A stretch of 41,363 nt of DNA from a virus, in the IMG/VR virus record IMGVR_UViG_3300045988_133265. One strand, given 5' to 3'. Of the stretch, positions 2,777 through 17,912 are shown one piece after another. A program made the translations under genes and the position numbers. Numbering within the stretch: position 1 is the stretch's first letter; each line of letters opens with the position of its first letter. Under the pieces are notes generated by a model. The model saw only the letters and a list, made by a program, of their open reading frames with translations. It made no database searches and was not told where the DNA came from.

Positions 2777-3699
2777 GCGACCTTGAGTAGAGCGAACCGG
2801 TCGACGAACACGTACCAGCCGTAGACGATCTCGAGCCGGAGCGCCACCTGGTTCTGGCGCTTCAGGTCGCCCTGGCCGTCCGGGTCACCGAAGCGGATCA
2901 GCTCGATCGGGAGCTGGCGCTGGACGCCCCAGCGGACTCCGCCGCGGAAGTCGCCGACGATCGCGCGAATCTTCGAGTCGGTCGCGATCTCCGGCAGACC
3001 GGAGACCGTGTCACCCTGAGCCACAGGCACGCCCATGAAGCTCGTCACGTTCGTGCCGAAGCCCAGCTCGGGGTAGCGGCGGTCGCTGGTCGCGCCCGCG
3101 CCGTCCTTGCGCTTGAGCTGGGACAGAGCCCAGGAGAACTTCGGGTCGAAAGCCGCGCCGGACACGCCCCAGGACTCGGGCTGGTTCACCAGCAGGCCCA
3201 CGGCGGAAGCGAAGTCGTCGTCCGGGTCAGCACCAGCCTGAGCCAGAGTCACGGACTTCGTGGTCTTCGCCACGTAGTTGTCCCAGGAACTGATCTCCGC
3301 GCCCGTCAGCGGGTTCACGCGGTGGATCATGCCCAGGTCCAGGGCGCGAGACAGCGCCACGGAGCCCTCGGAGGCCAGCGAGTTGACGATCTCGAGCTGG
3401 TAGTCCTCGTCGGTCCAGATCGCCTCCTCGGAGAACCGCATCGTCACCTGGGCCTTGTGGGGGACCGCGGTGACCGAGCTGAAACCGCCCTTAGTCGGAG
3501 ACTTCTGAGCGCCCTCCTCGACGAACTCGGCCTTCGGGAAGTCGTTGAAGACCAGGTAGTCCTTCTTTCCGAAGCGCATGGGCTCGCGGTTCGACAGGCG
3601 CGCGATCACCGACTCGGTGCGCGTGCGCTTGATCATCCCGTCCGCGATCTCGCGCGGCATGAGGACCTGTGCGTCAGTCGACGTAAAAATCGTCGCCAT
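2773..3699 (-). CDS. Major capsid protein (HK97-fold type)
   Basis: 308-aa ORF directly downstream of a scaffold-like gene. Size, position and sequence character (MATIFTSTDAQVLMPREIADGMI..., ...LRLEIVYGWYVFVDRFALLKVA) fit actinophage major capsid proteins. Confidence 0.8.
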   Translation of the reverse strand: MATIFTSTDAQVLMPREIADGMIKRTRTESVIARLSNREPMRFGKKDYLVFNDFPKAEFVEEGAQKSPTKGGFSSVTAVPHKAQVTMRFSEEAIWTDEDYQLEIVNSLASEGSVALSRALDLGMIHRVNPLTGAEISSWDNYVAKTTKSVTLAQAGADPDDDFASAVGLLVNQPESWGVSGAAFDPKFSWALSQLKRKDGAGATSDRRYPELGFGTNVTSFMGVPVAQGDTVSGLPEIATDSKIRAIVGDFRGGVRWGVQRQLPIELIRFGDPDGQGDLKRQNQVALRLEIVYGWYVFVDRFALLKVA

Positions 3700-3721
3700 G
3701 TGTTAAACCTTCCGTGTTGGT

Positions 3722-4234
3722 TCAGGAACCGCCGAACAGCGCCTGCAGGAACTGCCGAGCGGCGTCGGGACTGGAATCGGGCTGGTCACCCGCCTGCGGA
3801 ACAACCGGGCCACGAGGCGCGGACTTCCACGCCTGAGCGATCAGCTCGCCATGCGCCTGCAGGTCCTCGAGAGACTCGCCACGCAGCAGATCGACCGGCA
3901 CGTGAGTGGCCGCGGAGACTTGCTTCTTCCAGTCAGCGATCTGCGCAGCCTTCTCGGCCGCCACAGCCTTGCTCTTGAACTCCGCCAGCTCGGCCACGGC
4001 CTTCGCGTGCTCCGACTGGAGCGCGTCGAACTTGTCAGCCGCCGCCTTGTTCGACTTGGCTCGGTTCTCCCACTGCCGGGCATAGGACTTGTACCGGGCG
4101 GCCTCGGCCTCCCAGTCGGTCTCCGGCTCCGACGCCTGGGTCGACTCAGTCGGCTCGGGCGGGGCGGTGGGCTCCGTGCTGTCAGTCGCGGAGTCTGGTG
4201 CGTCCGGTGCGGACGCGTCTCCCGGGTTGTTCAT
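3722..4234 (-). CDS. Scaffolding protein
   Basis: 170 aa. It has an acidic/Pro-rich N-terminus followed by a long Ala/Lys/Glu helical segment (AEAARYKSYARQWENRAKSNKAAADKFDALQSEHAKAVAELAEFKSKAVAAEKAAQI). It lies immediately upstream of the capsid gene. Confidence 0.7.
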   Translation of the reverse strand: MNNPGDASAPDAPDSATDSTEPTAPPEPTESTQASEPETDWEAEAARYKSYARQWENRAKSNKAAADKFDALQSEHAKAVAELAEFKSKAVAAEKAAQIADWKKQVSAATHVPVDLLRGESLEDLQAHGELIAQAWKSAPRGPVVPQAGDQPDSSPDAARQFLQALFGGS

Positions 4235-4301
4235 GATTTAGTTGTTCTCCTGTCCGTGCGGAAGGTCCGGATCGACTGTGACAGTCCTCCGGTGGTTTCA
4301 A

Positions 4302-5102
4302 TCATACCAGCAAGTCTTTCATCGCGCCACTGGTCCACCCGTCCGACACGCCGTCCGTGTAGTCGTGCGGGAACAGGCGACGCATGGTCGCCAGCAGCAT
4401 ACGCGGGTCGTTCGGGTCCCCACCCAGGTCCTTCGTCAGTTTCCGGGACTCGTCGTACCGGCGCTTGAGCTCCGCCGGATCATAGCCATCCACCGCCACC
4501 TGCCGCCCCTTCCACGCCGGGACCACCTGGCAGCGGCAGTGATCGTGGAACTTGTTCTGCGTGGCTCCCCGACCACGGTGCTGAGCCTCGAACTCGGTCG
4601 TATACGTGAAGCCCCGGGACGCCAGCATTGCGCAGAACGCACACGTGCTGGTCCCCGACGGGACACGCGCCCAGCCACTGGACCGCGGGTCACGCACCGA
4701 GTTATGTGCCACCACCGACTGGGCTGCAGTCTGTACGTGCCGGTCCACCGCCCCACGTAGGATCGACAGCGCCCGCGTCGGGTTCTCCTCGAACAGGGAG
4801 CCCGACGCATAGCGCACGTTCTGGCGAACCTGCTCCGGAGTCACCGCCTCAGTAGTCGTCGCATAGAAGTGCTTGCCCAGCTCATCCCTACGGACCCGCT
4901 CGTACCACTCCGCCGCGGCCACTCCCGCCGTGTCACCATATACGGCCACCAGGCGGGGGAGGAACTCCACCAAAGCCTCGCGACAGGCGACCGGGTTCGA
5001 CCAGTCCAGGCTGTTGAAGAAGATCGTCAGGTCGTTGACCGCTAGCGAGCTGGTGCGCGTGATCGCCCCACGGATCTGGTTGATCTCAGCCCTGGTCACC
5101 AC
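4302..5102 (-). CDS. MuF-like minor capsid / head morphogenesis protein
   Basis: It lies downstream of the portal gene. The C-terminal CAFCAML...FHDHCRCQVVP matches the Phage_Mu_F style H-x-x-CRC motif. Confidence 0.7.
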   Translation of the reverse strand: MVTRAEINQIRGAITRTSSLAVNDLTIFFNSLDWSNPVACREALVEFLPRLVAVYGDTAGVAAAEWYERVRRDELGKHFYATTTEAVTPEQVRQNVRYASGSLFEENPTRALSILRGAVDRHVQTAAQSVVAHNSVRDPRSSGWARVPSGTSTCAFCAMLASRGFTYTTEFEAQHRGRGATQNKFHDHCRCQVVPAWKGRQVAVDGYDPAELKRRYDESRKLTKDLGGDPNDPRMLLATMRRLFPHDYTDGVSDGWTSGAMKDLLV

Positions 5103-6591
5103 CGGCGCTCACCCCCGCAGCGGAAGCACCCACGGACGAGGTCTCCCCGGCCACGGGAGCGCCTGGAGCGCCCTCGCCGGTACGAACCCCCGACATGATC
5201 GTCTCGAGGACGGACGGAGCCCGACGGCGCTCGTGCTGCGCCTCCATCTCCTCGATCTCCGGCTGGGTGAAGCCCGCTTTACGCAGAGCCACGGTCGTGT
5301 CAGCCACCTGCGGCAGAGCCTGGACGATCTTGGTGATATAATCGGACGCCGCAGCCGGGGACACGTACCGAGCCGGAGTCCAACGCACCTGCAGGTCCCA
5401 CGACTCCTGTGGTGGCTCGCTCAGGCCATCACGCAGCATGACCGCGTTCTGGGCCACGCGACGCAGAGCCGGGGCGAACACGCGCCACTGGAACTCCGCC
5501 TCGTCGCTCAGCGCGTACTCCGCCGCCTGCATGGCCTCGGCGCTCGCCGGGTTGTCCGCGAACAGGCCGACCATGGACTGCGGCATGTTCGTCGCCGCGC
5601 ACAGGTTCTGCGCCAGCTGTCGATACATCTCCCAGTGAGGCGACATGGACGACTGGGGGAACTGACCCACGGACGGCGCGTCGCCGTTCTCGTTCACCGT
5701 CAGGACCTGCAGGCGGCCCATGACCGCGCTCCACCGGTCCATATCGTCGAACGCCTCCGGGTCCACGCCCAGGGCGTAGCGCTGCGGGGACGCGAAGAAC
5801 TCCGCGCTGGTCTCCGCACGCACCATGGTCCGGATCGCCGCGTCGGTCAGGTAGCGGACCTCCCGGCTGATCCGCGAGCGCCCCAACGGGCGACTCAGCT
5901 GCGGGTCGTAGACCAGCGGCTCCACCAGGACCCGACCGGTCGGGTTACCCAGAGACCGGGCCACCCAACTGCCGGCAGCGCCCCGCTCGAGCGCGATCAC
6001 GTCGTCCGGCAGGTACAGGACCGCCGCGCTGGGCGCGTCCTTAGCCACGTCCGTGATCGTCAGCGCCGCGGAGATCTGCCGACGACGCCGGTCCCACAAG
6101 GCCGCGGACCACAGGGCGTCGCGCGCCTGCAGAACCACCTCGGGATCCCCGGCGGACGGGTCGCCCAGCGTACAGGTGATGAACGAACAACAGTGCTTAT
6201 AAGCACTGGTTATGCCCTGACTCAGCTCCAGATCGAACGAGTTATGAGCCAGCAGCGGGGACAGGTCGAACGGGTCCGTGTCGCCGTCCAGGCTGAACCC
6301 CTCGAACACATGCTTACGCGCCAGCGACTGGACCGCCTTGAACGGCCACGCCAGCGCCGCACGGACCCGCGTCATCTGCGGCGGGACCGAGATCCCCAGG
6401 TCCTGCAGCGACCGGTGCCCGTCGTAGTACACGTCCAGCAGCGCGTTACGGGCCCGCCGGGACGACCACAGCTGCCACAGCTTGTCCAGCACCGCCTGCC
6501 GGCTGGAGTCCAGGCCAGCCACCTGCGGGACTCCCGGGTCCGACTGGACGATCGGATCCGAGCCGTCCAGTCCTTGTGTATCCAGGATCAC
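5086..6591 (-). CDS. Portal protein
   Basis: 501-aa ORF with a GTGA overlap with the terminase large subunit stop. Size and position are canonical. Confidence 0.8.
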   Translation of the reverse strand: MILDTQGLDGSDPIVQSDPGVPQVAGLDSSRQAVLDKLWQLWSSRRARNALLDVYYDGHRSLQDLGISVPPQMTRVRAALAWPFKAVQSLARKHVFEGFSLDGDTDPFDLSPLLAHNSFDLELSQGITSAYKHCCSFITCTLGDPSAGDPEVVLQARDALWSAALWDRRRRQISAALTITDVAKDAPSAAVLYLPDDVIALERGAAGSWVARSLGNPTGRVLVEPLVYDPQLSRPLGRSRISREVRYLTDAAIRTMVRAETSAEFFASPQRYALGVDPEAFDDMDRWSAVMGRLQVLTVNENGDAPSVGQFPQSSMSPHWEMYRQLAQNLCAATNMPQSMVGLFADNPASAEAMQAAEYALSDEAEFQWRVFAPALRRVAQNAVMLRDGLSEPPQESWDLQVRWTPARYVSPAAASDYITKIVQALPQVADTTVALRKAGFTQPEIEEMEAQHERRRAPSVLETIMSGVRTGEGAPGAPVAGETSSVGASAAGVSAGGDQG

Positions 6592-8060
6592 AGAATCCTC
6601 ACCCCTCGGTTACCGGCGCCCCGCGGGCGTCGCCTAGTCGTACGCGCCGTCCAGTTCGCGGCGCTGATCGCCTCGATCGGGAGCTCATCCCCCTCCGGCG
6701 AAGTCGCCTCCCAACCGAACGCCCCGTCCCTACGGCGCTTCTGTCTGTCGCACGAGCCCACTGACGCGTCCAAGGCATCGCCCTCCTGGCCCGCCGGGTG
6801 AGTCGTCTGGCCACTAGCCACCGACTGGACCAGCATAGCACACGAGTCCAGGTACTCGCCCGTGCTCATCACGTGGATCATGCGAGGCGGGAGCTTGCGC
6901 GCAAGCAGCGCGTCCTTCAACGGAGCCGAGCCCGCCCCACCCAACAGACTCACCTGCGCCGTAGACGACCGGCGCTCAGCCAGCCAATCCGCCAGCCGCT
7001 CCACGCCCTGCTCGAGCGGACCCGACCACGCACCGATCAGATTCACGTGAACCCGCTGGCCGTCACGCATCGCCCCAGCCACCGCCTGCCGCATGCCATC
7101 CTGACTGAACACCACAGCGAACGACTTGACCCCGTCCGCCGGGGGATCCGCCACACACGACTTCCACGCCTCCGCGCTGATCGCCCGAGTCCGGCCACGC
7201 TTCAACGGCCACACGCCCAGGCGCTCGCGGGCGAAACCATCCGGGCTGAACCGCTTGCGCTCACCCTCCACCACGATCATCTGCAAGCGACCAGCCGCAA
7301 GCGCCGGGTTGTTCGCCCGCCACAGCTCACGATCATCCAGATCCAACAGACCCGGGTTCCCATCCGGCGACCACTCATCCCAACAGGTCCGCCCTGGGTT
7401 GTCACCCAGGGCGTCGTCACGGACACGCGTGAAGACCTCGCCATCAGCCTGCGGGCCCGGCGGGGTCCCCGTGAACAGCCACTGCGGGTTACGTAGCGGA
7501 GCCGCCGACGTCGTCGGCATCAGAGCCTCCAACGCGTCGTCGTTCATCTCCTGTGCCTCGTCCATGACCAGCGTGTCGACCGTGAAGCCACGCGCCGAGT
7601 TCTTCGACCGGGCCACGATCTCAATCGACCCGCCGTTAGACAGCAGGACCGCCTCCTGGCCGTTCACCGACCGGATCGTCTTCACCAGGGCGTTCAGCTC
7701 CGGGAACTGCGCAGCCGGGTCGTTCGCCTTCTCGCCGAAGAAAAACTTCAAACGACGGAAGTGCTTCTGAGCCGTCTTCACCTCATGAGCCGTGTGGAGA
7801 ATCCGCTCCCCCAGGGCCACCGCCCCGAAGACCTCGCGGACCTCGAGGCACACGTTCTTCCCATTCTGGCGGGGGACCGACAGGCCACACGTCAGGTGGG
7901 CCCAGCGGCCGTGCTCGTCCAGCGCCAGCCACGCGTCCAAGACCTGAGCCTGCCACGGATCGGGCACCAGGCCGTGCTTGGTGATGAACTCGCACGCCAG
8001 GTCCCCCATGGTCCGGTCGATCGCAGTAGACCGGACGGTCTTAGGCGCGCTGGCGGGCAC
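6588..8060 (-). CDS. terL: Terminase large subunit
   Basis: 490 aa. The GTG start at 8060 is preceded by AGGAGG. VPRQNGKN is a Walker A-like motif and TLVMDEAQEM is Walker B, followed by a nuclease half. It lies upstream of the portal gene. Confidence 0.85.
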   Translation of the reverse strand: MPASAPKTVRSTAIDRTMGDLACEFITKHGLVPDPWQAQVLDAWLALDEHGRWAHLTCGLSVPRQNGKNVCLEVREVFGAVALGERILHTAHEVKTAQKHFRRLKFFFGEKANDPAAQFPELNALVKTIRSVNGQEAVLLSNGGSIEIVARSKNSARGFTVDTLVMDEAQEMNDDALEALMPTTSAAPLRNPQWLFTGTPPGPQADGEVFTRVRDDALGDNPGRTCWDEWSPDGNPGLLDLDDRELWRANNPALAAGRLQMIVVEGERKRFSPDGFARERLGVWPLKRGRTRAISAEAWKSCVADPPADGVKSFAVVFSQDGMRQAVAGAMRDGQRVHVNLIGAWSGPLEQGVERLADWLAERRSSTAQVSLLGGAGSAPLKDALLARKLPPRMIHVMSTGEYLDSCAMLVQSVASGQTTHPAGQEGDALDASVGSCDRQKRRRDGAFGWEATSPEGDELPIEAISAANWTARTTRRRPRGAGNRGVRIL

Positions 8061-8355
8061 GCACGGCCTCCTGGAAGTCGACCAGGCCGCTGGCCGGATC
8101 CTTGGACTCCGCGGCCTGCTTCACCTCGGTCTTCGAGGGCCGCTGGGCCGTGGGGATCCCCAGCGCCTGACTGATCGAGTTGGTCAGCTTGTGGGCCTCG
8201 CCGATCAGCGGACCACGCCGGTACTTGGGTGTCCCGGCCATGGACTGGAGCGACAGGTTGTACAGGCGTACGAGCTCGGCGATATGGTCCCAGTCACGGG
8301 CGTCCTCGGGCACCGGGGCCAGCAACTCGGAGTCGTCGTGAATCTCGGTAGCCAT
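8041..8355 (-). CDS. Terminase small subunit (position-based)
   Basis: 104-aa ORF overlapping the terL start by 20 nt. No motif was recognised, so the call rests on synteny only. Confidence 0.45.
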   Translation of the reverse strand: MATEIHDDSELLAPVPEDARDWDHIAELVRLYNLSLQSMAGTPKYRRGPLIGEAHKLTNSISQALGIPTAQRPSKTEVKQAAESKDPASGLVDFQEAVRARQRA

Positions 8356-8932: not shown

Positions 8933-9063
8933 GATCCCCTCGCAGTCTGTGCCCGCAGCGTCGTCTCCCCAGCGGTCCCACCAGGAGACACGTTGGTGGG
9001 TGCTTGGGCACCAGTATAGCGCGGGCCATGGGGTGGGCGCAAGCCGGGAGTAGGGTGGTCTTC

Positions 9064-9103
9064 GTCACATACCCGGTGCCGGGCCACCCACCGGGTATGT
9101 GAC
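9064..9103. repeat. Perfect 15-bp inverted repeat with 10-nt loop
   Basis: gtcacatacccggtg (9064..9078) is the reverse complement of caccgggtatgtgac (9089..9103). The half-site TCACATACC recurs at 9144..9155, and a variant TCACGCACC recurs at 9184..9196. Confidence 0.6.
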
Positions 9104-9422
9104 CGACCCGCCCCCTGTCGCTCGGACCCATGGGTGGTCGCGATCACATACCTGGGCTGGCGCTCACCCATGGGCGCTCGCGCTCACGCACCTGGGTGCT
9201 CGTGCGTCGTGCGTGCGTCGCGTACGTACGTGAGACGACCTCTCCCTACCGATTGGTCGGCTCGTGTGTTCGACAGATTTGGTCCGAACCCGTTCGCGCG
9301 TACGCGCACTACAGACCCCCTCTCCGTAGTCGTTTCATACTAGAAGTAAAGAAAAAAACCAACTAATAATCAAAACTCAAGTCGTTATGTACGGTGGTAT
9401 TTCGGTTCCTCTGTTTAAACTC

Positions 9423-9652
9423 GGTCTAGATTGAGCGGTCCGACCTGTCTCTGAGCGGCGTCATGACGCGGTTGTTCTGGGAGACTCTTGGTCTGACTCA
9501 AACTACGAACTAGAAATCGATCGACTGACGGTCGATCGGCATGGTTGGGTCTAACAGGCCCAACCCGGAGAGACTTCCGACTTGCGGAATCTGGAGCGCT
9601 CTGCTAAATTTAGTACGTGCCCGACGGGCGATTTCTGGTCTGACTCAGACTA
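9423..9652. promoter_or_regulatory. Divergent control region with a lower-GC tract and four GGTCT(A/G)A repeats, including two 17-mers TGGTCTGACTCA(A/G)ACTA
   Basis: The copies are ggtctaga at 9423, tggtctgactcaaacta at 9489..9505, ggtctaac at 9548 and tggtctgactcagacta at 9636..9652. ACTAGAA recurs at 9340, 9509 and 9649. An 8-bp hairpin lies at 9518..9538. No credible ORF is present. Confidence 0.5.
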
Positions 9653-9678
9653 GAAGTACCGAGAGATAGGAGAGAACC

Positions 9679-10284
9679 ATGAGTACACCGATTGCTGGAC
9701 ACCGCGTGGGACCGTGTCCGCCCCAGTTCCAGGCGCTTGTGGAGGAGGACTACGCGGATCACGCGGCGGCCATGGCTAGATCGGGACGTGTGTCCACCGG
9801 ACCCGGCAGTGGCCCAACTACGGCGCTGGAGCGCATGGCGCTGGAGAGCCTGGTGCGTAACCTGGTGGACCGCCCCCGGTGCTGGGGCCGCCTGTACGGT
9901 CCGTGGGAGGCGTGGCGCGAGTCCACAGCTAAAGCGGCGTTGTCTAGGCTGCGTACCCGTCAGTCCCTGGCTAGCGAGTTCGACGTGGCGCGTACGCGTG
10001 GGCATCTGAATCTGCGGCTGCTGCTGGACACGCCCATGGCTCCGACGCTGCACGGACAGCGCTGCTGGTGGGTCTGGGGCCAGTTCGTGCCCGGCGTCCC
10101 GGACGTGGGCGTGGAGTCGGATCGTGACCGGTTCCTGCGGCTGGTGAAGGTGCTGAGCGACCGGGGTGAGACGGAGCTGATGACGGACTTGCTGATCCGG
10201 GGCGAGGACTTCCCGGACGGTTACCCGGACCGGGCGTACGTGGACCGGTGGCTGGGGGACTACGGGCTGCCGATTGATCTGTAG
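9679..10284 (+). CDS. Hypothetical early protein (paralogue of the next gene)
   Basis: 201-aa ORF, the first gene of the plus-strand arm, with RBS GGAGAGAACC-ATG. It shares the W-x-R-x-YGPW...WWV...F-x-P signature with 10310..10675. Confidence 0.65.
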   Translation: MSTPIAGHRVGPCPPQFQALVEEDYADHAAAMARSGRVSTGPGSGPTTALERMALESLVRNLVDRPRCWGRLYGPWEAWRESTAKAALSRLRTRQSLASEFDVARTRGHLNLRLLLDTPMAPTLHGQRCWWVWGQFVPGVPDVGVESDRDRFLRLVKVLSDRGETELMTDLLIRGEDFPDGYPDRAYVDRWLGDYGLPIDL

Positions 10285-10303
10285 TTATCACGCGTGATAG
10301 ACT
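10274..10303 (+). promoter_or_regulatory. Candidate sigma-A-type promoter TTGATC-N18-TAGACT with extended -10 (GTGATAGACT)
   Basis: The -10 element ends 6 nt before the ATG at 10310. It overlaps the perfect palindrome tatcacgcgtgata (10287..10300). Confidence 0.45.
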
Positions 10304-10309
10304 CGGATC

Positions 10310-10675
10310 ATGAGACCGATGAGTGCGCCCGGGCCGGTCGTGGCCGCAGACGGGCTGACGGAAGAGGAACTGACTGGCCTGCAGGACCCGCGCCTGTACG
10401 AGGCGCCGATGCCGCGGGGGAACAAGCACCGCACGGTGCTTGAGGCGGCACGGGTGCTGGAGCGCAGCCCGGGGCTGTGGTTCCGGTTCTATGGGCCGTG
10501 GCCGCTGCAGTCGCGTGGCGCCCACCAGGCGGCGAGCCACCTGCGGCTGGGTCAGCGGTATGGCGCCCAGCTGGGTGGTCGTCGGCTTGAGTTCCGGGCT
10601 ACGGCGTGGCGCGGGCACTGGTGGGTGTTCGCGCGCTTCAACCCGGACGCGGAGCCGATCCCGACAAGAGACTGA
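10310..10675 (+). CDS. Hypothetical early protein (paralogue of 9679..10284), probably leaderless
   Basis: 121-aa ORF with no SD sequence. The ATG lies exactly 7 nt after the last base of the -10 hexamer. Confidence 0.6.
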   Translation: MRPMSAPGPVVAADGLTEEELTGLQDPRLYEAPMPRGNKHRTVLEAARVLERSPGLWFRFYGPWPLQSRGAHQAASHLRLGQRYGAQLGGRRLEFRATAWRGHWWVFARFNPDAEPIPTRD

Positions 10676-10700
10676 CAGAGAGTAACAGGAGACACAAACC

Positions 10701-10982
10701 ATGTGTGATGAACGTAACACAAACGAATCTGCCGACGTAGGACCCCGGTCCTATGCTCTGCGCATGACGAGGGCGGAGTGGCCCGAGGCCCGGTTGATCC
10801 GGGTCCTGATCGGGACCGCCGGTGGGCGCCTGGTGAAGGACCTGCTGGCGCTGCGCGGGCCCTCCACGCCCCGCGGCTTCCAATACCTGCTGGAGGACGG
10901 GCGGGTGCTCGACCCCCGCGAGGACGGCGACGTGATCGAGGCCTACCACATGGTAGAGCACGTGGGGAGGCGAGTCTGGTGA
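10701..10982 (+). CDS. Hypothetical protein
   Basis: 93-aa ORF preceded by the consensus leader AGGAGACACAAACC-ATG. Confidence 0.6.
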   Translation: MCDERNTNESADVGPRSYALRMTRAEWPEARLIRVLIGTAGGRLVKDLLALRGPSTPRGFQYLLEDGRVLDPREDGDVIEAYHMVEHVGRRVW

Positions 10983-13150
10983 CCACGAACACACGTGTGG
11001 AGCGCCTGAACCCCCGCGGGTTCATGCGTATGATCGCCGCCGCCGGGCTGGTTCGCCCCACGGTGGCTCTGGATACCGAGACGTCCGGGCTCCACCCGGA
11101 TGACGGGGCGCGGGTCTCAACCGTGTCCGTGGCTCTGGTCCTGGAGGGCCGGGAGCTCGAGTTCATCCGCCGCCACCTGCACGAGGGCCAGCACGTGTGG
11201 GACTCGGGCGTGGTCACGCTGCAGGAGGAGACCTACGCGGACGGCGTGGACCCGGTCTGGATCCTGTCGGCTGCGTGGCCGTTTGACCAGGGCGTGGAGG
11301 GCACGGGCAAGCCGGAGGACTCGGGGCAGGGCGAGCTGGTCCCGGCCACGTCGAACCAGCCGCACAGCCAGTGGCGCGGTCTATGCGAGGGCTTGACGGG
11401 CCCGCCGCCCGGGTCCAACGACGGTCCGCCGCAGGGCTGCGACCTGGTCTTCCACCACGCCCGATTCGACCTGGCTATGATGGCTGCGGGCGTGCGCAGG
11501 TGGCCGGGCGACGGCGTGGACCTGCTGGACCGGTTCCTGTGGGACACGCAGAACGTGTGCGCCCAGTTGTACGCCCCGTGGGTGCTGCGGCGTGGCCCGA
11601 AGGGCGCCATGGTGGGTACGACGGCGTTGAAGCCGACTTGTGAGTTCCTGTTCGGGACCGAGGTGGGCGATGAGTCGCGTACGGTCCACGACTACCTGAG
11701 GCGGGCGAAGCTGCCGGCTGGGCGCTGGGATCTGATGCCGTGGGACCGTGTGGGTAAGTACGCGGACTTGGACGCCCGGCTGACGCTCATGCTCTACCTG
11801 CGTCAGAACCACGACCTGGACGCGTATGGCCGGGGCGAGCTGTGGGATCTGCCGGCTCCGTCGGGTCACGTGTTGGATCACGCCTACCGGCGTATGGAGG
11901 TCACGCGTATGCTGGTGCGCACTGAGCGCCGGGGCCTGCCGTACGACCCGGAGGCGGCGCGCGCGGCTGGGGACCGGCTGAGGTCCGAGCTGGAGACCCT
12001 GGGTCGGTCGCTGCCGTTCGAGCCGAGCGTGAACGCGGCGAAGCGGTTCTGGTTCGCGCCGAAGTCCGAGGGCGGCATGGGTCTGCCGCCGTATGCGACC
12101 ACCGCACAGGGGGCGCCGTCTCTTACGGCGTCGATCCTGGACCGTATGGTGCGTGATCACATGCCGCATGCGGAACAGTTCGCGCGTTACCGGGGCTGGG
12201 ACTCGGCGGTCTCGCGCTGGTACGAGGGCTGGACTTCCATGGCGGGTCCGGACGGGCGGCTCCACCCGACTTTCCGGCAGAACGGGACGGTCTCGGGTCG
12301 GTTCTCGGTGGAACGGATCCAGTTGCAGGCGATTCCGCACGATTACCGGCTGGCTCTGCCGGAGGGCGTGCCGACGCCGCGTGGTCTGATCGAGCTGGGC
12401 GTGCCTCGTGGTTGGCGCCTGGTGGAGTGCGATCTGGCTAACGCGGAGGCTCGCGTGGCTGCGCTGCTTGCAAACTGCCGGCCCATGTTGCAGGCTTTTG
12501 CACAGGGGCGGGATCTGCACGGTGAAACGGCGAAGGCTTTGTTTCACGTGTCGGAGGACCGGCCGGATTGGTCGCAGTGGCGGACGCTTGCAAAGCGTGC
12601 AAACTTTTCTTTCATCTTCGGCGTGGGGGCGGACACGTTCCGTGAAAGCCTTGCAGCGGAGGGGACGGAGATCAGCCGTGCGGAGGCGCAGCGGATCGTG
12701 GCGGACTGGAACTCGCTGTACCCTCAGTACCGGCGTGCGATCCGGTTCCATGAGGAGCGGGTGAAGCAGCGGGTGGCCCGGTACGGTGTGGGCTGGGTCG
12801 ATCTGCGTAACGGCGAGCGCCGGTGGTTCACCAGGGACGAGGACACGCACAAGGCGTTCAACCAGCGGGTCCAGGGGAATCTGGCGCAGCTGGCTCAGGA
12901 CTGGTGGCTGGAGGCGACGGACAAGGTCGACCAGTTGCTGGCCCCGTGGGTGACCGACGGCGTGGACCGGGACGGCACGTACGTGGGTGGCGTGGGTGGT
13001 GTGCTCATGGTGCATGACTCGCTGGACGTGCTGGTCCCGATCGGTGAGATCGGGGACCGGTGCGTGGATGAGGTGGTGCGCGTGGGCGGCGAGGCGTGGG
13101 AGCGCTGGTTCCCGGAGGTCCCGGGCCACGTCGACCCGTCAGCGTGGTGA
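10979..13150 (+). CDS. Family-A DNA polymerase with 3'-5' exonuclease domain (DpoZ-like by context)
   Basis: The GTG at 10979 makes a GTGA overlap with the upstream stop. Motifs seen are ExoI VALDTETSGL, motif A VECDLANAEARV, motif B RTLAKRANFSFIFGVG and motif C LMVHDSLDV. Confidence 0.85.
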   Translation: MTTNTRVERLNPRGFMRMIAAAGLVRPTVALDTETSGLHPDDGARVSTVSVALVLEGRELEFIRRHLHEGQHVWDSGVVTLQEETYADGVDPVWILSAAWPFDQGVEGTGKPEDSGQGELVPATSNQPHSQWRGLCEGLTGPPPGSNDGPPQGCDLVFHHARFDLAMMAAGVRRWPGDGVDLLDRFLWDTQNVCAQLYAPWVLRRGPKGAMVGTTALKPTCEFLFGTEVGDESRTVHDYLRRAKLPAGRWDLMPWDRVGKYADLDARLTLMLYLRQNHDLDAYGRGELWDLPAPSGHVLDHAYRRMEVTRMLVRTERRGLPYDPEAARAAGDRLRSELETLGRSLPFEPSVNAAKRFWFAPKSEGGMGLPPYATTAQGAPSLTASILDRMVRDHMPHAEQFARYRGWDSAVSRWYEGWTSMAGPDGRLHPTFRQNGTVSGRFSVERIQLQAIPHDYRLALPEGVPTPRGLIELGVPRGWRLVECDLANAEARVAALLANCRPMLQAFAQGRDLHGETAKALFHVSEDRPDWSQWRTLAKRANFSFIFGVGADTFRESLAAEGTEISRAEAQRIVADWNSLYPQYRRAIRFHEERVKQRVARYGVGWVDLRNGERRWFTRDEDTHKAFNQRVQGNLAQLAQDWWLEATDKVDQLLAPWVTDGVDRDGTYVGGVGGVLMVHDSLDVLVPIGEIGDRCVDEVVRVGGEAWERWFPEVPGHVDPSAW

Positions 13151-13158
13151 CCGTCACG

Positions 13159-13188
13159 TTGACATGTGATAACACGAGAGTTTAGGAT
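13159..13188 (+). promoter_or_regulatory. Candidate promoter TTGACA-N18-TAGGAT
   Basis: The -35 hexamer is a perfect TTGACA at 13159..13164. The -10 TAGGAT at 13183..13188 ends 6 nt before the ATG at 13195. Confidence 0.45.
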
Positions 13189-13194
13189 TGAGAC

Positions 13195-13743
13195 ATGGAA
13201 CAGGGAGACAAGACCGAGACGCGGACCGGCTACAGCGCCGAGACGCTGAGGCGCCTCGCCAGCTGGTTCGACCCGACCGGCTACCTGATGGTCAATTCCG
13301 CGCGGCGGCTGGCCACGGACAGGTCGTTCGCCACGATCCTACTGACGAAGACCAACGACCGGGAGGACTCGCTTGAGGTCCACCACCTGGCGCCCGACCG
13401 GTCCTGGCCCGTCGGAGTCGGCGGGACCAGCAGCCAGCCGCGCCGGTTCTACCAGGTGCCCGTGGTGATCTCGAAAGCACGAGACCTGCTGCTGGACATG
13501 CAGCCGTACGTGCACGTACAGAAACGGTCGCTCGAGATCATGATCCGTGCGCTGGCGGACTACGAGATCATCAAGGACCCGCAGTTCCTGCCGGAGGACC
13601 CGATCGTGAAGCGGGCCAAGCGGCGGATCCAACGGGCGCGTAGAGACCTGCGCGCCGCCAACCAACAAGCCTCCCGCCGCAAGCGGGAACTCCGCCAGCA
13701 GTTGGCGGAGATTAAGAAACACGAACAGGAGACACAGCCATGA
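13195..13743 (+). CDS. Hypothetical protein with very basic coiled-coil C-terminus, translationally coupled to the purZ-like gene
   Basis: 182-aa ORF. The C-terminus is KRAKRRIQRARRDLRAANQQASRRKRELRQQLAEIKKHEQ. There is an ATGA overlap with the next gene at 13740..13743. Confidence 0.65.
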   Translation: MEQGDKTETRTGYSAETLRRLASWFDPTGYLMVNSARRLATDRSFATILLTKTNDREDSLEVHHLAPDRSWPVGVGGTSSQPRRFYQVPVVISKARDLLLDMQPYVHVQKRSLEIMIRALADYEIIKDPQFLPEDPIVKRAKRRIQRARRDLRAANQQASRRKRELRQQLAEIKKHEQETQP

Positions 13744-14840
13744 GCAAAGTCGTCGTAGTCGCAGGCGCCCAGTTCGGGTCCGAGGGCAAGGGCCACGTGG
13801 CCGCCCAGTTGATCCAGCTGGAGCAGCGCGCCGCCCACCCGGTGCTGAACGTGCGAGTCGCCGGGCCTAACGCGGGCCACACGGTGGTCGACAGGGACGG
13901 GCGGGCGTTCGCCCTGCGTACCGTGCCGGTGGGCGCCGCCCTGGACCCGTGCCGGTGCGCGATCGCCCCGGGGTCGGAGATCGAGCTGGCGGTCCTGCGC
14001 CAGGAGGTCCAGGACCTGCGCGCCGCGGGCCACCGCGTGGACATGGTGATCGCCGCGGAGGCGACGGTCCTGACGGATGAGCACAAGCAGGCGGAGGTCG
14101 AGGCGGGCATGGCGCAGCGCCTCGGGTCCACGGCTAAGGGGATCGGGGCCTGCAGGTCGGACCGCGTGTGGCGCACGGCCACCCGGTTCGGGGACTCGCC
14201 CGAGGCGGTGGCCCTCGCGGAGGAGCTCGGCTTCGAGGTGATCGAGAACTGGGTCGCCTACATGAACGACTACCTGGACCACGTGCCTCAGGCGATCGTC
14301 GTGGAGGGCACGCAGGGCTACGGGCTGGGGCTCCACGCGGGCCACTACCCGCAGTGCACGAGTAGCGACACGCGTGGGATCGACTTCCTGGCTATGGCGG
14401 GCGTGAACCCGTGGCACGCGGGCGTGAGCGAGTTCAAGATCGTGCTGGCTACCCGCGTCTACCCGATCCGCGTGGCTGGGAACTCGGGCCCGCTCGAGGG
14501 CGAGACCACGTGGGAGGAGCTGGGCCTGCCTCAGGAGCGCACGACGGTGACTCACAAGGTCCGCCGCGTGGGCCAGTTCGACCCGGCGGCGATCAACCGG
14601 GCGATCCACGCGAACGGCGGGGAGCCGACGGTTGAGATCGCGATGACCATGGTGGACCAGGTCCTGCCGCAGATCAAGGACGCGGACGGGGACTCGGCGG
14701 ACTGGGCGTCGGCCCAGTTGGAGTCCCAGGAGGGGACGGCCGCGGCCACGGCGCTGTTCGAGTACCTGACCACGGTGCGGGCGGCGCTGGACGCGCCGAT
14801 CACCATGGTGACGACCTCGCCGTCGACGGCGCTGTACTGA
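13740..14840 (+). CDS. purZ: Adenylosuccinate synthetase homologue, PurZ-like (candidate N6-succino-2-amino-2'-deoxyadenylate synthase)
   Basis: The ORF aligns by eye along the whole length of E. coli PurA. Matches are VVVAGAQFGSEGKGHVAA (PurA VVVLGTQWGDEGKGKIVD), RVAGPNAGHTVV (RYQGGHNAGHTLV), GSTAKGIG (GTTGRGIG), VVEGTQGYGL..HYPQCTSS (MFEGAQGTLL..TYPYVTSS), IAMTMVD (FCLTKLD) and ITMVTTSPS (IDIISTGPD). At 366 aa it is shorter than the roughly 430 aa of PurA. Confidence 0.7.
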   Translation: MSKVVVVAGAQFGSEGKGHVAAQLIQLEQRAAHPVLNVRVAGPNAGHTVVDRDGRAFALRTVPVGAALDPCRCAIAPGSEIELAVLRQEVQDLRAAGHRVDMVIAAEATVLTDEHKQAEVEAGMAQRLGSTAKGIGACRSDRVWRTATRFGDSPEAVALAEELGFEVIENWVAYMNDYLDHVPQAIVVEGTQGYGLGLHAGHYPQCTSSDTRGIDFLAMAGVNPWHAGVSEFKIVLATRVYPIRVAGNSGPLEGETTWEELGLPQERTTVTHKVRRVGQFDPAAINRAIHANGGEPTVEIAMTMVDQVLPQIKDADGDSADWASAQLESQEGTAAATALFEYLTTVRAALDAPITMVTTSPSTALY

Positions 14841-14850
14841 GGAGGCGGAC

Positions 14851-15432
14851 ATGCTCAGGGGTGCGCTGGACGGCGTCCGCAATCGACTGGCGGACTGGAT
14901 CCGGGTCCCGGGGGACGACCCCGTGGAGCCGCCGGTCTGGGAGTTCCTGGTGGAGGAGGACCCGGGTCCGGTCTCGACCCAGTCGGGTCGGTTCATGGGG
15001 CAGGAGCGGGTGGCTCCCTGTTGCGAGCCGTGGCTGACGGACCTGGTGGGGTCGGCTCCGACGGCGGCCAGCCCGGACGACCCCGGGACCTCGGTGGAGG
15101 CGCTGGCGGATCTGCGTGACTGGTGGCTGTCGACCGCCCAGGCGGACATGGCCATGGTGGCGCCGAAGGCCGTGGAGTACGGCTCGGTGGAACTGGAGGA
15201 GATGGGCGCGGCGCTGGCCCGTATGATGGGCCGGTCGGACCTGTCGGCCGCCCGCCGGGTGGAGCTGGCGTGCTGGTTCTACGCGATGGGGAAGATGCAG
15301 CGGTGGACGGCGGCGGTCACGCGTGGTGAGTTCGTCTCGGACGACACGCTTACGGACCTGGGGGTTTACACGCTCATGGTCCGCCGCGCCCGTGAGGCCG
15401 GGACCTGGCCGGGTGGCCCGGACCGGGACTGA
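14851..15432 (+). CDS. MazG-like nucleotide pyrophosphohydrolase candidate (MazZ/DUF550-like by context)
   Basis: 193-aa ORF with a GGAGG RBS. The C-terminal roughly 100 aa (KAVEYGSVELEEMG...ELACWFYAMGKMQRW...DDTLTDLGVYTLMV) resembles the all-alpha MazG-like pattern, from memory only. The N-terminal roughly 90 aa is unassigned. Confidence 0.45.
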   Translation: MLRGALDGVRNRLADWIRVPGDDPVEPPVWEFLVEEDPGPVSTQSGRFMGQERVAPCCEPWLTDLVGSAPTAASPDDPGTSVEALADLRDWWLSTAQADMAMVAPKAVEYGSVELEEMGAALARMMGRSDLSAARRVELACWFYAMGKMQRWTAAVTRGEFVSDDTLTDLGVYTLMVRRAREAGTWPGGPDRD

Positions 15433-15441
15433 TTAGAGACT

Positions 15442-15478
15442 GGCGCCCCGCCTGGTGATCGGGATCGGGCGGGGCGCC
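15442..15478 (+). terminator. GC-rich hairpin (11-bp stem) between the MazG-like and dUTPase-fusion genes
   Basis: ggcgccccgcc (15442..15452) is the reverse complement of ggcggggcgcc (15468..15478), with a 15-nt loop. The T tail is weak. Confidence 0.35.
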
Positions 15479-15500
15479 TCGAAACTTTGGAGACAGAACG

Positions 15501-16385
15501 ATGACTTTGGTATACGTGGCTCAGGCGGTCGACAGGGACGCGCCGCAGATCCCCGCGAGGTTCGAGGAGGTGCTGGACTGGTTGCGGCACGATTTCGTGC
15601 TGTATCGGCCCGCGAGCGCCTTCCAGGTTTCGCCGGGTGGCGTGGGCACGGACTCGTGCGTGCGTGACGTGAACATGGCGGCGCTGGATCGTGCGGACGC
15701 GCTGCTGGTTCTGCTGCCGGTGGAGGAGCCCCGGTCTTGGGGCGTCCCGGCGGAGGTTGAGCGGGCGATCATAGCGGCAAAGCCGGTGACTTTCCTGGTG
15801 ACTCGGGGGAGCCGTGTGGTGGGTGGCTGGTCGACCCAGTACGCGTCCACTGAGGTGGAGGTGATTGCGACCGAGTCCGTGCCGCTGTTGCGGGTGGTGG
15901 AGTTGGTGCGTGCGTCGTTGACTCGCAGGACTGCGCTGGTGCCTCACCGCCCTGTGGCGGATCTGCCGGTCCGTATGGATTCGGGGGCGGCGAGGCTCCC
16001 GACTCGGGGTCACGACGATGACGCGGGTCTGGACCTGTACGTGTCGGCTCTGACGACTTGCCCGCCGGGGCAGTTCGTGGACGTGCCGTGTGGCGTGGCT
16101 GTGGAGCTGCCGGCTGGCACGTGGGGGCTTCTGACTGGTCGGTCGTCGACGATGAGGCGGCGTGGTCTGCAGACGATTCAGGGGGTGATCGATTGTGGTT
16201 ATCGTGGCGAGCTTTTTGCTGGCGTGTTCAATCCGGGCACGGAGGAGGTCGTGCTTGAGGAGGGCGAGCGCGTCAGTCAGTTGATCGTGCTACCGAATCT
16301 GACGGCTGGCTTGCGCCCGGTTCTGGCGCGGGAGCTGTCGGACTCGGATCGGGGTACTGGGGGCTTCGGCTCCACCGGTCTGTGA
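15501..16385 (+). CDS. Fusion protein: N-terminal nucleoside 2-deoxyribosyltransferase/dNMP N-hydrolase-like domain plus C-terminal trimeric dUTPase
   Basis: The C-terminal half has all five dUTPase motifs: AGLDL, GRSS, GVIDCGYRGE, RVSQL and RGTGGFGSTG. The N-terminal roughly 145 aa (VYVAQAVD...DVNMAALDRADALLVLLP...SWGVPAEVERAIIAAKPVTFLV) fits the NDT/Rcl-like Rossmann pattern. Confidence 0.75.
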   Translation: MTLVYVAQAVDRDAPQIPARFEEVLDWLRHDFVLYRPASAFQVSPGGVGTDSCVRDVNMAALDRADALLVLLPVEEPRSWGVPAEVERAIIAAKPVTFLVTRGSRVVGGWSTQYASTEVEVIATESVPLLRVVELVRASLTRRTALVPHRPVADLPVRMDSGAARLPTRGHDDDAGLDLYVSALTTCPPGQFVDVPCGVAVELPAGTWGLLTGRSSTMRRRGLQTIQGVIDCGYRGELFAGVFNPGTEEVVLEEGERVSQLIVLPNLTAGLRPVLARELSDSDRGTGGFGSTGL

Positions 16386-16392
16386 TTTGTTT

Positions 16393-16430
16393 CACGTGGG
16401 CGTTGGGTTGTGTGACCTGACGCCCACGTG
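16393..16430 (+). terminator. Hairpin (11-bp stem) after the dUTPase-fusion gene, overlapping the next promoter motif
   Basis: cacgtgggcgt (16393..16403) is the reverse complement of acgcccacgtg (16420..16430), with a 16-nt loop. Confidence 0.4.
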
Positions 16431-16437
16431 ATAAACT
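16408..16437 (+). promoter_or_regulatory. Candidate promoter TTGTGT-N18-TAAACT with extended -10 (CGTGATAAACT)
   Basis: The motif CGTGATAAACT lies at 16427..16437. It is followed by the palindrome gataaacttgttttatc. Confidence 0.4.
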
Positions 16438-16484
16438 TGTTTTATCAACGGGGGAAAGGCCCCCGGGGATAGGAGACACAAGCC

Positions 16485-16628
16485 ATGATCACCAAGACCG
16501 ACCTGGACCGGGTCCTCAGCGAGCACTTCGGCCACGAGGGAGACAGCCTGACTGACCTGGGGATCGGCTACCGCGCCTACAGCGCCGAGTCCGACACCTA
16601 CTGGGCGACATGGTCTACGCTACGATGA
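16485..16628 (+). CDS. Small hypothetical protein (47 aa, below ORF-track cutoff)
   Basis: The ATG at 16485 is preceded by the consensus leader AGGAGACACAAGCC. My translation is MITKTDLDRVLSEHFGHEGDSLTDLGIGYRAYSAESDTYWATWSTLR*. A further 30-aa ORF (16625..16717) follows with an ATGA overlap. Confidence 0.45.
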   Translation: MITKTDLDRVLSEHFGHEGDSLTDLGIGYRAYSAESDTYWATWSTLR

Positions 16629-16781
16629 CCGACAGCACGTGGACCGAGGTCAAGCACGGGCGGACCGCGGACGACGCGGACGACCTGGGGACCTTCCTCG
16701 AGTTCATGCTTTCCTGACCACCCACCGCCGGGGGCGGGCGCCACCGCCCCCCGGCACAACACAGAAACGGAGACACAAACC

Positions 16782-17129
16782 ATGCCGGCAATTACGATGA
16801 CACAGAACAAGACCGGGCGGGTGCTGCGCACGCCGCTGGCGGGCCGGATCCTGGCGGGCTGGCTCATGCGTTACTACGCCGGGGACGCCGAGGTCGAGCT
16901 GGACTACATGGACTCCCGGTTCACGGTCGACGACGGGACCGCCCGGGTCGTAATCTGGTTCGAGTCCGGTGAGGTCACGGGCTACAAGGGCTGGACCGTG
17001 GACGTGTGGGACGCGGTCAGCGAGGCCCCGCGGTTCCTGCAGCAGTACCGCGTGGAGTACACGGGCCAGATCGCCGCGATCATCGGCGCCTACGGCGCGC
17101 TGAAAGGAGGAACCGGCCATGTCGCGTGA
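16782..17129 (+). CDS. Hypothetical protein
   Basis: 115-aa ORF preceded by the consensus leader CGGAGACACAAACC-ATG. Confidence 0.6.
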   Translation: MPAITMTQNKTGRVLRTPLAGRILAGWLMRYYAGDAEVELDYMDSRFTVDDGTARVVIWFESGEVTGYKGWTVDVWDAVSEAPRFLQQYRVEYTGQIAAIIGAYGALKGGTGHVA

Positions 17130-17340
17130 ACCGAGACAGGACGACCGGATCGTGTTCTTTATCGCCCGGCACGGCTACGCGGCCGTCGTGGCTCTCGTGT
17201 TCGTCGCGATCACGATCATCGCGCTCCTGGGCCTGTCGCTGGGCGCCTGGGCCGCCTCGGGCTCGCCCAAGCCGTTCATCCTGGCCCTCGGGTTCGCGGG
17301 CGTGATCTACTGGCTCTGGTTCAGCGACCAGAGCGAGTGA
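17119..17340 (+). CDS. Small membrane protein (two predicted TM helices)
   Basis: 73 aa with an AGGAGG RBS. The hydrophobic stretches are AAVVALVFVAITIIALLGLSLGAWA and FILALGFAGVIYWLWF. Confidence 0.6.
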   Translation: MSREPRQDDRIVFFIARHGYAAVVALVFVAITIIALLGLSLGAWAASGSPKPFILALGFAGVIYWLWFSDQSE

Positions 17341-17372
17341 ACAAAACAAACAACACACGGAGGAGACAAGCC

Positions 17373-17912
17373 ATGGGCTTCCCCACAGACAAAGCCATAA
17401 AGACCTGGGAGCACGCCGGGCTGCAGTGCGCGATCGCGCCAGCCGGCTGCAACCCGAACGGCGGGACCGCCTACAACGGGTACGTGCGAGTCCCACAGGG
17501 TAGCGACTGGCACGGCCGCAACTACGACACGATCAACCAGATCATGTGGGACAACGAGGGCGACTGGCCCGAGTCCGCCCGGCTCGTGGGCGGCGCCAGC
17601 GAACTGACCTACAACAACCGAGACGGCTGGATCGGGTTCGACACGCTCCACGCGGGCGACCGCTGGCCCGAGGACATGCTCGACCCGATTGGCATGTCGA
17701 CCGGCCCGTACGAGACCGCCTGGACCATGGACCGACTGCAGGACGCCGTCAACGCCTGGGCCGAGATCGTTGCCCACCGCAGCCCCCTGTGGTGGCTCCT
17801 GGACCACTATAGCAAGGCGTTCGAGGACGCGATCCAGACTGCCGGCACCCACATGAAGCAATTGGCCGCGGTCGCCCAGCGGATCGCCGAGATCGCCGGG
17901 AGCACGCGATGA
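17373..17912 (+). CDS. Hypothetical protein
   Basis: Internal ATG of track ORF 17337..17912, preceded by GGAGGAGACAAGCC. Notable sequence is NGYVRVP...WIGFDTLHAGD. No function is assigned. Confidence 0.6.
   Translation: MGFPTDKAIKTWEHAGLQCAIAPAGCNPNGGTAYNGYVRVPQGSDWHGRNYDTINQIMWDNEGDWPESARLVGGASELTYNNRDGWIGFDTLHAGDRWPEDMLDPIGMSTGPYETAWTMDRLQDAVNAWAEIVAHRSPLWWLLDHYSKAFEDAIQTAGTHMKQLAAVAQRIAEIAGSTR

Follow-up and report, generated by a model that had tools for sequence, protein, structure and literature searches.

The gene clusters of phages that replace adenine with 2-aminoadenine (Z) in their DNA have been described in more than one form. The cluster of S-2L, phiVC8, and SH-Ab 15497 comprises PurZ, either MazZ or a DUF5664-DUF550 protein, DatZ, and a phiVC8-like DpoZ polymerase. 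The cluster of Arthrobacter phage Wayne (Korravirus) consists of DpoZ-1, an HNH endonuclease, PurZ0, DUF5664-1, and a DmtZ-DutZ fusion, and the published rule is that PurZ0 genomes use DutZ and DmtZ in place of DatZ and MazZ; dutZ is carried by 98 of 98 PurZ0 genomes, usually together with dmtZ (PMC12884076). Here, we describe a cluster of this kind in the virus record IMGVR_UViG_3300045988_133265, a stretch of 41,363 nucleotides (nt) that is called the window below; it is 41.4 kb long, has ~68% GC, and encodes a complete siphovirus. The genes at 10979..16385 probably constitute a PurZ0-type Z-genome cluster as in Wayne and Gordonia phage Ghobes, with the virion DNA expected to be ZTGC. As a Z-genome module it adds little, because PurZ0, Wayne-like DpoZ, and DmtZ-DutZ were characterised in 2021-2026 and curated NCBI models exist. 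Of some value is the gene between purZ0 and dutZ, which encodes a member of a protein family, called family X here, that occupies this slot in almost every PurZ0 lineage. The region had been singled out in an original prediction of a 2-aminoadenine DNA module with a DpoZ-like PolA, a PurZ-like synthetase, and a MazG-like hydrolase, for which S-2L and phiVC8 served as the comparison set.

Polymerase, synthase, and hydrolase genes of the cluster

The protein of 366 amino acids (aa) encoded at 13740..14840 on the plus strand is a homologue of adenylosuccinate synthetase far beyond chance (Pfam Adenylsucc_synt, 1.5e-39), as had been proposed, and the PurA-type blocks quoted for it were all located: GAQFGSEGKGH (aa 9-19), GPNAGHT (42-48), GSTAKGIG (129-136), EGTQGYGL (189-196), HYPQCTSS (202-209), and TMVD (303-306). 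Ser14 in the first block occupies the position of the P-loop Asp of PurA; each of the 147 phage PurZ sequences in a published comparison has Ser where PurA has its catalytic Asp13 (PMC12884076). The protein exceeds the cut-off of NCBIfam model NF038379 amino_Aden_PurZ (334.1 bits, cut-off 300) and falls well short of every NCBIfam PurA equivalog, with scores such as 182.7, 131.2, and 125.8 bits against cut-offs of 368, 395.6, and 402, respectively. An ordinary PurA acting as an auxiliary metabolic gene was considered and is ruled out by the curated cut-offs and the Ser P-loop.

Further comparisons place the protein within the PurZ family. It matches phrog_1211 of PHROGs at 6e-89, and its best match in the PDB is 7VF6 (1.7e-88, 300 bits), which is the PurZ0 of Gordonia phage Archimedes (PMC12884076, a 2026 NAR paper). 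The other PDB matches are weaker: phiVC8 PurZ (8e-31, 111 bits), archaeal P. horikoshii PurA (3e-30, 109 bits), S-2L PurZ (3e-27, 99 bits), and E. coli PurA (4e-19, 72 bits). It is also 47-55% identical to the PurZ0 proteins of Wayne, Ghobes, Hiyaa, and Parvaparticeps. By these pairwise scores and identities, the protein is assigned to the PurZ0 subgroup and not to the PurZ of phiVC8 and S-2L. Its predicted activity, taken from the homologues, is that of a succino-amino-deoxyadenylate synthase, which would convert dGMP and aspartate to dSMP. In the alignment, the (N/T)KxD element that specifies guanine still has its Asp, with TMVD in the window protein and SMAD in 7VF6, which is suggestive only as a pointer to the phosphate donor. 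GTP is reportedly the donor used by PurZ0.

The 723-aa protein encoded at 10979(GTG)..13150, also on the plus strand, is a DNA polymerase of family A that carries a 3'-5' exonuclease domain. In line with the proofreading domain proposed for this PolA, the exonuclease motifs DTE (aa 32-34), FD (163-164), and YxxxD (261-265) are present together with polymerase motifs A (ECDLANAE), B (AKRANFSFIFG), and C. It matches Pfam DNA_pol_A at 3.8e-32 and obtains 678.3 bits with NCBIfam NF038381 phage_DpoZ_2 (cut-off 350), whereas the phiVC8-type model NF038380 (DpoZ_1) gives only 42.9 bits versus a cut-off of 500; the NCBIfam cut-offs of the PolA equivalogs are missed as well. The identity to Wayne DpoZ (gp47) is 43% over the full length. 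Phe547 of NFSFIFG stands at the position of Klenow Tyr766, and the Wayne counterpart reads NFSLIFG; this Tyr-to-Phe replacement in helix O is the one substitution common to both DpoZ clades (PMC8599892). A preference for dZTP over dATP would be predicted for this enzyme from its homologues. Motif C (13013-13027) reads HDS instead of the HDE that is usual in family A, with VHDSL and VHDSM in the window and Wayne DpoZ, respectively, which is possibly a trait of the Wayne-like DpoZ clade.

The 294-aa protein encoded at 15501..16385 on the plus strand, whose stop codon ends the predicted region, aligns over its full length with the NDT-Dut protein gp53 of Wayne (35% identity, E 1e-50). Its N-terminal NDT-like domain (aa 1-~150) keeps six DmtZ residues, Y5, D11, P37, N58, E85, and W110, equivalent to Y6, D12, P57, N77, E103, and W124 of Ghobes. 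These Ghobes residues, which include the Tyr/Asn/Glu triad of the NDT superfamily plus Asp12, Pro57, and Trp124, were mutated or modelled in Ghobes DmtZ (PMC12884076). The C-terminal dUTPase-fold domain (aa ~160-294) matches Pfam dUTPase at 5.5e-24 and keeps the five dUTPase motifs AGLDL, GRSS, GVIDCGYRGE, RVSQL, and GGFGSTG. It narrowly misses the curated Dut cut-offs of NCBIfam (100.5 vs 102.55 and 87.4 vs 103 bits), as expected of a diverged DutZ. That dATP is converted to dAMP and adenine and dGTP to dGMP, and that deoxyribose-5-phosphate is transferred to Z, has been measured for the Wayne and Ghobes proteins (PMC12884076). The N-terminal half of the window protein would accordingly be a predicted dAMP N-glycosidase and deoxyribose-5-phosphate transferase, and the C-terminal half a predicted dATP/dGTP/dUTP diphosphatase. 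The putative dATP/dGTP hydrolase of the module is thus this DmtZ-DutZ fusion, which supplies the pairing of dutZ with dmtZ typical of PurZ0 genomes. No HD-domain match indicative of DatZ was found among the ~37 larger open reading frames (ORFs) scanned with Pfam or PHROGs, and this fits the published DutZ/DmtZ rule.

The module can be assigned to the PurZ0 type of Wayne and Ghobes because a PurZ0 is the closest structure to its synthase, its polymerase passes the DpoZ_2 model and is related to Wayne DpoZ, and Phe is found in helix O. The view of a 2-aminoadenine module with PurZ and DpoZ is borne out, as both proteins lie above the curated NCBI cut-offs and the gene order is that of Wayne and Ghobes. 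The choice of S-2L and phiVC8 as models has to be replaced by the Wayne-like PurZ0/DpoZ-1 system, given 300 bits for 7VF6 versus 111 for phiVC8 PurZ. The module composition, which had been thought to differ from those described, is not unusual for PurZ0 phages once the fusion at 15501..16385 is taken as the characterised hydrolase. The co-oriented trio of PolA, purZ, and a third gene was correctly read with regard to the ORFs, their positions, and the plus strand, but the label "MazG-like" for the third gene (14851..15432, 193 aa) is not supported. The same gene set was obtained in an independent gene call on a 41.6-kb metagenome contig that is 94-98% identical. All five module ORFs are intact with a strong coding bias in GC content at third codon positions (GC3), and 90-98% amino-acid identity is maintained across many metagenome contigs.

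The order of PolA, a small ORF, purZ0, the slot gene, and (dmtZ)dutZ is common to the window, Wayne, Parvaparticeps, and Ghobes. Wayne shares this order with identities of 43% for DpoZ, 48% for PurZ0, and 35% for the fusion; it differs in having DUF5664-1 (PF18909) in the slot, with no detectable similarity to the family X protein of the window, and the HNH endonuclease at the position of the window gene orf182. Ghobes and Archimedes resemble the window in PurZ0 (43-47% identity), in a family X gene directly downstream of purZ0 (48% in the domain) with no DUF5664, in an NDT-like DmtZ with the same catalytic residues, in DutZ, and in a Wayne-like DpoZ. In Ghobes, however, DmtZ and DutZ are encoded apart from each other, a number of small ORFs are scattered among the genes, and PolA is located ~4.4 kb upstream, whereas in the window the two are fused and PolA is adjacent. 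Curtobacterium phage Parvaparticeps is the closest isolate by PurZ0 (51%) and is co-linear, with a polymerase (44%), a small ORF, an X domain (42%), and a dUTPase (57%); its X protein is 300 aa long with another N-terminal extension, its 155-aa dUTPase stands alone, and no NDT-like domain was detected by tblastn. In Streptomyces phage Hiyaa the order is that of the window, except that ten small ORFs separate PolA from purZ0. The likeness to S-2L, phiVC8, and SH-Ab 15497 lies in the formation of dZTP from dGMP via a Ser-P-loop PurA paralogue, in dATP depletion, and in a Z-selective PolA. The PurZ subgroup (99 and 111 bits vs 300) and the DpoZ clade (43 bits with NF038380 vs 500) are different, and the window shows neither an HD-domain DatZ among its larger ORFs nor a MazG/DUF550 match, with dATP and dGTP hydrolysis ascribed to a dUTPase-fold enzyme. 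The window thus joins the Ghobes-type slot gene, the Wayne-type DmtZ-DutZ fusion, and an adjacent DpoZ, and the same set is found in four IMG/VR contigs (loci L011, L014, L021, and L023).

Family X in the slot between purZ0 and dutZ

The slot gene of the window (14851..15432, plus strand) has a GGAGG Shine-Dalgarno sequence ahead of its ATG and encodes 193 aa, in which the conserved X domain is formed by the C-terminal ~105 aa (nt ~15103..15414) and the N-terminal ~85 aa are variable and predicted to be disordered. The domain is homologous to genes downstream of purZ0 in Parvaparticeps (E 1e-22), Hiyaa (gp68, 1e-30), and Ghobes (gp51), the N-terminal parts of these proteins being mutually unrelated. 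An exhaustive search with hidden Markov models (HMMs) collected 935 clusters of the domain at 50% identity. Among 175 members, W91, W92, K106, Y110, G119, E138, Y144, K148, R151, D165, T166, D169, Y173, M176, R181, G184, and W186 are conserved in at least 97%, and the charged positions conserved in at least 90% include the acidic E109, E138, D165, and D169 and the basic K106, K148, and R151. The extensions at either terminus are variable and often Cys-rich, with zinc-finger matches only below threshold, and no fusion of X with DmtZ, DutZ, or PurZ0 that could serve as a Rosetta stone occurs among 179 family members.

The genomic association of the family was examined from two sides. In a set of 60 IMG/VR loci collected with the X domain alone as query, a PurZ0 homologue lies directly upstream of X in 58, the remaining two beginning at a contig end, and Dut lies downstream in 58, the remaining two being cut. 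In a set of 80 IMG/VR loci collected with PurZ0 alone, dut is downstream in 80 of 80, and the slot between purZ0 and dut is occupied by X in 66 and by DUF5664 in 14, with no locus having both or neither. When PurZ0 was clustered at 70% identity, this became 27 lineages with X versus one with DUF5664, which comprises Arthrobacter isolates. Records of isolated phages with X come from Microbacterium (18), Gordonia (6), Streptomyces (5), Curtobacterium (1), and Micrococcus (1); the X counts equal the PurZ-match counts exactly in Microbacterium, Gordonia, and Streptomyces phages, and no X was found in the records of Arthrobacter phages. Over the whole of PurZ0 diversity, the gene normally encountered between purZ0 and dutZ is X, and X and the DUF5664-1 dNTPase exclude each other. 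In one locus only, IMGVR_UViG_3300020042_006344 (342-2853), the PurZ0 homologue is located downstream of X-Dut on the opposite strand (2853-1969), an arrangement that may stem from a genuine rearrangement or from misassembly at a contig end.

The label "MazG-like" for this gene finds no support in sequence, profile, or structure comparisons with MazG, DUF550, or DUF5664. No Pfam model, those of MazG, PRA-PH, DUF550, and DUF5664 included, matched the 193-aa protein or any of 34 relatives even at E<=10, and the protein also had no match in PHROGs (E<=1), in NCBIfam, or, by phmmer or profile hmmsearch, among PDB sequences. The DUF5664-1 protein of Wayne (gp51) matches PF18909 (DUF5664 / dGTP_diPhyd_N) at 3.5e-32, whereas the 193-aa protein does not, and the two proteins align by BLASTP at E 0.48. 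In hhalign comparisons of X and DUF5664 profiles built from 175 and 120 sequences, the probability was 0.1%, and both local and global modes were negative. A likeness between the motifs PKAxEYG...RW..A..RGE..SDDT of X and GAxKY...RH....W.GE..D.E of DUF5664 was also considered; hhalign aligned the same stretch at a probability of 0.12%, and homology is not claimed. The sharing of the purZ0-dutZ slot is a positional and functional analogy between X and DUF5664, not membership.

A first model of the full-length protein was poor (predicted local distance difference test, pLDDT, 55, with a disordered N-terminus), and its Foldseek matches were meaningless. The AlphaFold (AF2) model of the domain alone is a four-helix bundle with a pLDDT of 90.8 and a predicted template modelling score (pTM) of 0.77. 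Foldseek of this model against the PDB gave nothing below E=1.6, none of it significant; the 60 sub-threshold matches include the MazG-type structures 7mu5, 2yfc, and 7ody (DCTPP1, DR2231, and S-2L MazZ) at E 7-9 and template modelling (TM) scores of 0.19-0.34. The significant matches in BFVD are family members only, annotated as "uncharacterized". The next, weak ones are DUF6378 and "nucleotide modification associated domain" proteins (E 0.2-3, probability 0.77-0.99, TM ~0.5), which is only a hint that X might be distantly akin to other helical domains of phage nucleotide metabolism.

With no Pfam, PHROGs, or NCBIfam model, X would escape surveys that are driven by annotation. It is not mentioned in two recent surveys based on Pfam annotation, one of them PMC12884076, and Ghobes gp51 is annotated as hypothetical and not discussed in the 2026 study (PMC12884076).

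Proposed pathway and role of family X

By homology to the Wayne and Ghobes enzymes, DutZ would lower dATP and yield dGMP, and DmtZ, the N-terminal half of the fusion, would destroy dAMP and free adenine; it could also move deoxyribose-5-phosphate onto a free Z base, which would amount to Z salvage. PurZ0 would then turn dGMP and aspartate into dSMP, host PurB and host kinases would carry dSMP on to dZTP, and DpoZ would preferentially polymerise dZTP opposite T to give ZTGC virion DNA. X may take part in this scheme as a second pyrophosphohydrolase that converts dATP and dGTP to the monophosphates, thereby feeding PurZ0 and depleting dATP. This role is favoured, at roughly even chances, because the sole other gene ever found in its slot, DUF5664-1, has exactly that activity, its dNTP diphosphatase activity having been measured (PMC12884076). 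In broader terms, the chances are likewise about equal for and against X being a core part of the PurZ0 route that has so far gone unnoticed, either as a dNTP/dNDP pyrophosphohydrolase of a new class, with no sequence kinship to the MazG, DUF550, DUF5664, Dut, and HD enzymes, or as a dedicated partner of PurZ0.

Two other readings of the locus as a whole were weighed against a PurZ0-type cluster. According to the one, this is an S-2L/phiVC8-type cluster in which 14851..15432 is by homology a dGTP pyrophosphohydrolase of the MazG type (MazZ/DUF550). The ORF is indeed small, mostly helical, and placed right after purZ, as is mazZ in some Z-phages, and MazG-type structures appear among its sub-threshold Foldseek matches. 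Those matches are no better than unrelated helical bundles, however, the Pfam and PDB profile searches described above were empty, PurZ, PolA, and Dut each fall into the PurZ0/Wayne clade and not that of phiVC8 and S-2L, and no DatZ was seen among the larger ORFs, so that this reading is very improbable. According to the other, the genes exist in a phage whose DNA is normal ATGC or carries Z in part only, and the PurA-like gene serves as an auxiliary gene of purine metabolism or the module is a decaying relic. A sequence by itself cannot show Z, which leaves room for this view; it is nevertheless unlikely in the face of five intact and strongly GC3-biased ORFs that are conserved across many contigs, the retained catalytic residues, the wide margin by which the PurA models were missed (183 vs 368 and 131 vs 396 bits), and the presence of the full co-adapted set of DpoZ, PurZ0, and DmtZ-DutZ.

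A further alternative concerns X only. It could be a non-enzymatic accessory specific to PurZ0, which might for instance serve PurZ0 or DutZ as a subunit or regulator, or block a host enzyme whose action would supply dATP or degrade dZTP. Consistent with this, the X loci with upstream sequence, 58 of 58, all have purZ0 beside X, its small four-helix bundle has no enzyme-fold match, its variable and often Cys-rich extensions are adaptor-like, and in Ghobes, which carries X, DutZ alone hydrolyses dATP and dGTP (PMC12884076). The perfect mutual exclusivity with an enzyme, DUF5664-1, in the same slot argues against an accessory, as do the approximately seven highly conserved charged residues within ~105 aa, a pattern seen more often where a protein has a catalytic or ligand-binding site, and the weak fold likeness to DUF6378 proteins of viruses and to nucleotide modification associated domain proteins. 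Such an accessory role is plausible, with lesser weight than that of a pyrophosphohydrolase.

Several points tell against the proposed scheme of a ZTGC phage with X as a second pyrophosphohydrolase. Z in the virion DNA and all of the enzyme activities are extrapolated from homologues at 35-51% identity. The phosphate donor of the 366-aa protein should not be assumed, given that PMC12884076 is inconsistent about it, stating that PurZ uses ATP and later giving the preferences of PurZ0 and PurZ as "ATP and GTP, respectively". With regard to X, the arguments for its role are position and mutual exclusivity; the comparison with DUF5664 profiles, the sequence databases, and the MazG-type structures gave it no relatives of established function, and its fold, a four-helix bundle, is generic. 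Both dATP and dGTP are already hydrolysed by DutZ, so X might have another task, and the seeming confinement of X to PurZ0 contexts, as opposed to the widespread DUF5664, could point to a more pathway-specific role.

If X is a core component, published schemes of the PurZ0 pathway miss a near-universal player present in ~27 of 28 PurZ0 lineages, and Wayne, the best-studied PurZ0 phage, would be the exception in which X is replaced by DUF5664-1. The description of the pathway, or its engineering for the production of ZTGC DNA, may then be incomplete without X, which represents a cheap and well-defined biochemical target.

Neighbouring elements, host setting, and cellular PurZ-like genes

Between PolA and purZ0, the window carries orf182 (13195..13743, plus strand), a function-unassigned protein of 182 aa with a basic, coiled-coil-like C-terminus and a GC3 of 0.87. 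It has no Pfam, PHROGs, or NCBIfam match, its homologues form only 4 clusters in 5.8 billion proteins (64-97% identical), and it is restricted to close relatives of the window (L007-L009 and L065). The stop codon of orf182 overlaps the start of purZ0 (ATGA), suggesting translational coupling. Ahead of orf182, following the PolA stop, a promoter-like site TTGACA-18-TAGGAT (13159..13188, plus strand) is the sole sigma-70-like match in 9000..17500, with 10 of 12 positions and 0.3 expected by chance, a score that reflects the match to a consensus only, which may not be that of the host.

An RNA hairpin (15442..15478, plus strand) lies within the 68 nt that separate the X gene from dmtZ-dutZ. It has a 15-bp stem, a 7-nt loop, and no U-tract, and its minimum free energy of -36 kcal/mol (z-score -4.66) was reached by none of 200 shuffled sequences. 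It is 98% conserved in five close relatives, above the flanking coding sequence, with no informative covariation. The hairpin could be a terminator or attenuator lacking a U-tract, or an element of mRNA stability.

The cluster is part of a plus-strand replication block from ~9.7 to 29.4 kb, which is flanked by minus-strand structural genes at 331-8355 and 29448-41218 (terminase, portal, protease, scaffold, major capsid, tail, tape measure, and endolysin). The replication block ends with a gene for a C5-cytosine DNA methyltransferase at 28448-29407 on the plus strand (Pfam PF00145, 1.9e-30), and the phage may combine Z substitution with site-specific 5mC.

The structural genes are nearest to those of Actinomyces phage LC001 (portal 60%, capsid 63%, tail 44%), a phage that infects Schaalia odontolytica and itself lacks DpoZ, PurZ0, X, and DutZ. 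One close relative of the window, IMGVR_UViG_7000000046_000018, comes from a sample with an identifier in the style of the Human Microbiome Project. Together these suggest a human oral host and a modular acquisition of the Z cluster; the window, an uncultivated ~41-kb siphovirus, is likely, although this is unproven, to have a human oral actinomycete as its host, probably Actinomyces/Schaalia. A predicted ZTGC-DNA phage is thereby placed in a probable human oral setting, and LC001, structurally related and without the module, forms a natural pair with it for studying what a phage gains from Z-DNA. No integrase turned up in the scanned ORFs of the window. The contig IMGVR_UViG_3300045988_137126 (78,020 bp) carries a ~94-99% identical copy of the module, the other relatives being ~41-42 kb; at nearly twice that length, it may represent an assembled concatemer, an integrated element, or a larger one.

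A query of 185,579 species genomes with a single protein for prophage copies found no close relative, only distant cellular PurZ-like genes. These are 13 bacterial chromosomal loci with PurZ-like proteins of 31-42% identity, and X, Dut, and DpoZ are absent from the vicinity of all of them. Each of the 12 readable loci has the Ser P-loop of the phage type, GAQFGSEGKG; the remaining one is cut at a contig end. In Rhizobium mesoamericanum (NZ_JAUSWE010000009, 9434-11741), a P-loop kinase-like domain is joined to the PurZ-like domain on its N-terminal side, DUF7002 follows, and a RelA/SpoT-like gene is nearby. In a metagenome-assembled genome of Pseudomonadales (OY282379, 7884-13504), the PurZ-like protein lies between an RNase_H_2-DUF429-kinase-like protein and a dCTP-deaminase-like protein, with an HD protein adjoining. 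Such cellular loci may be nucleotide-modifying or defence systems built on a PurZ-like enzyme.

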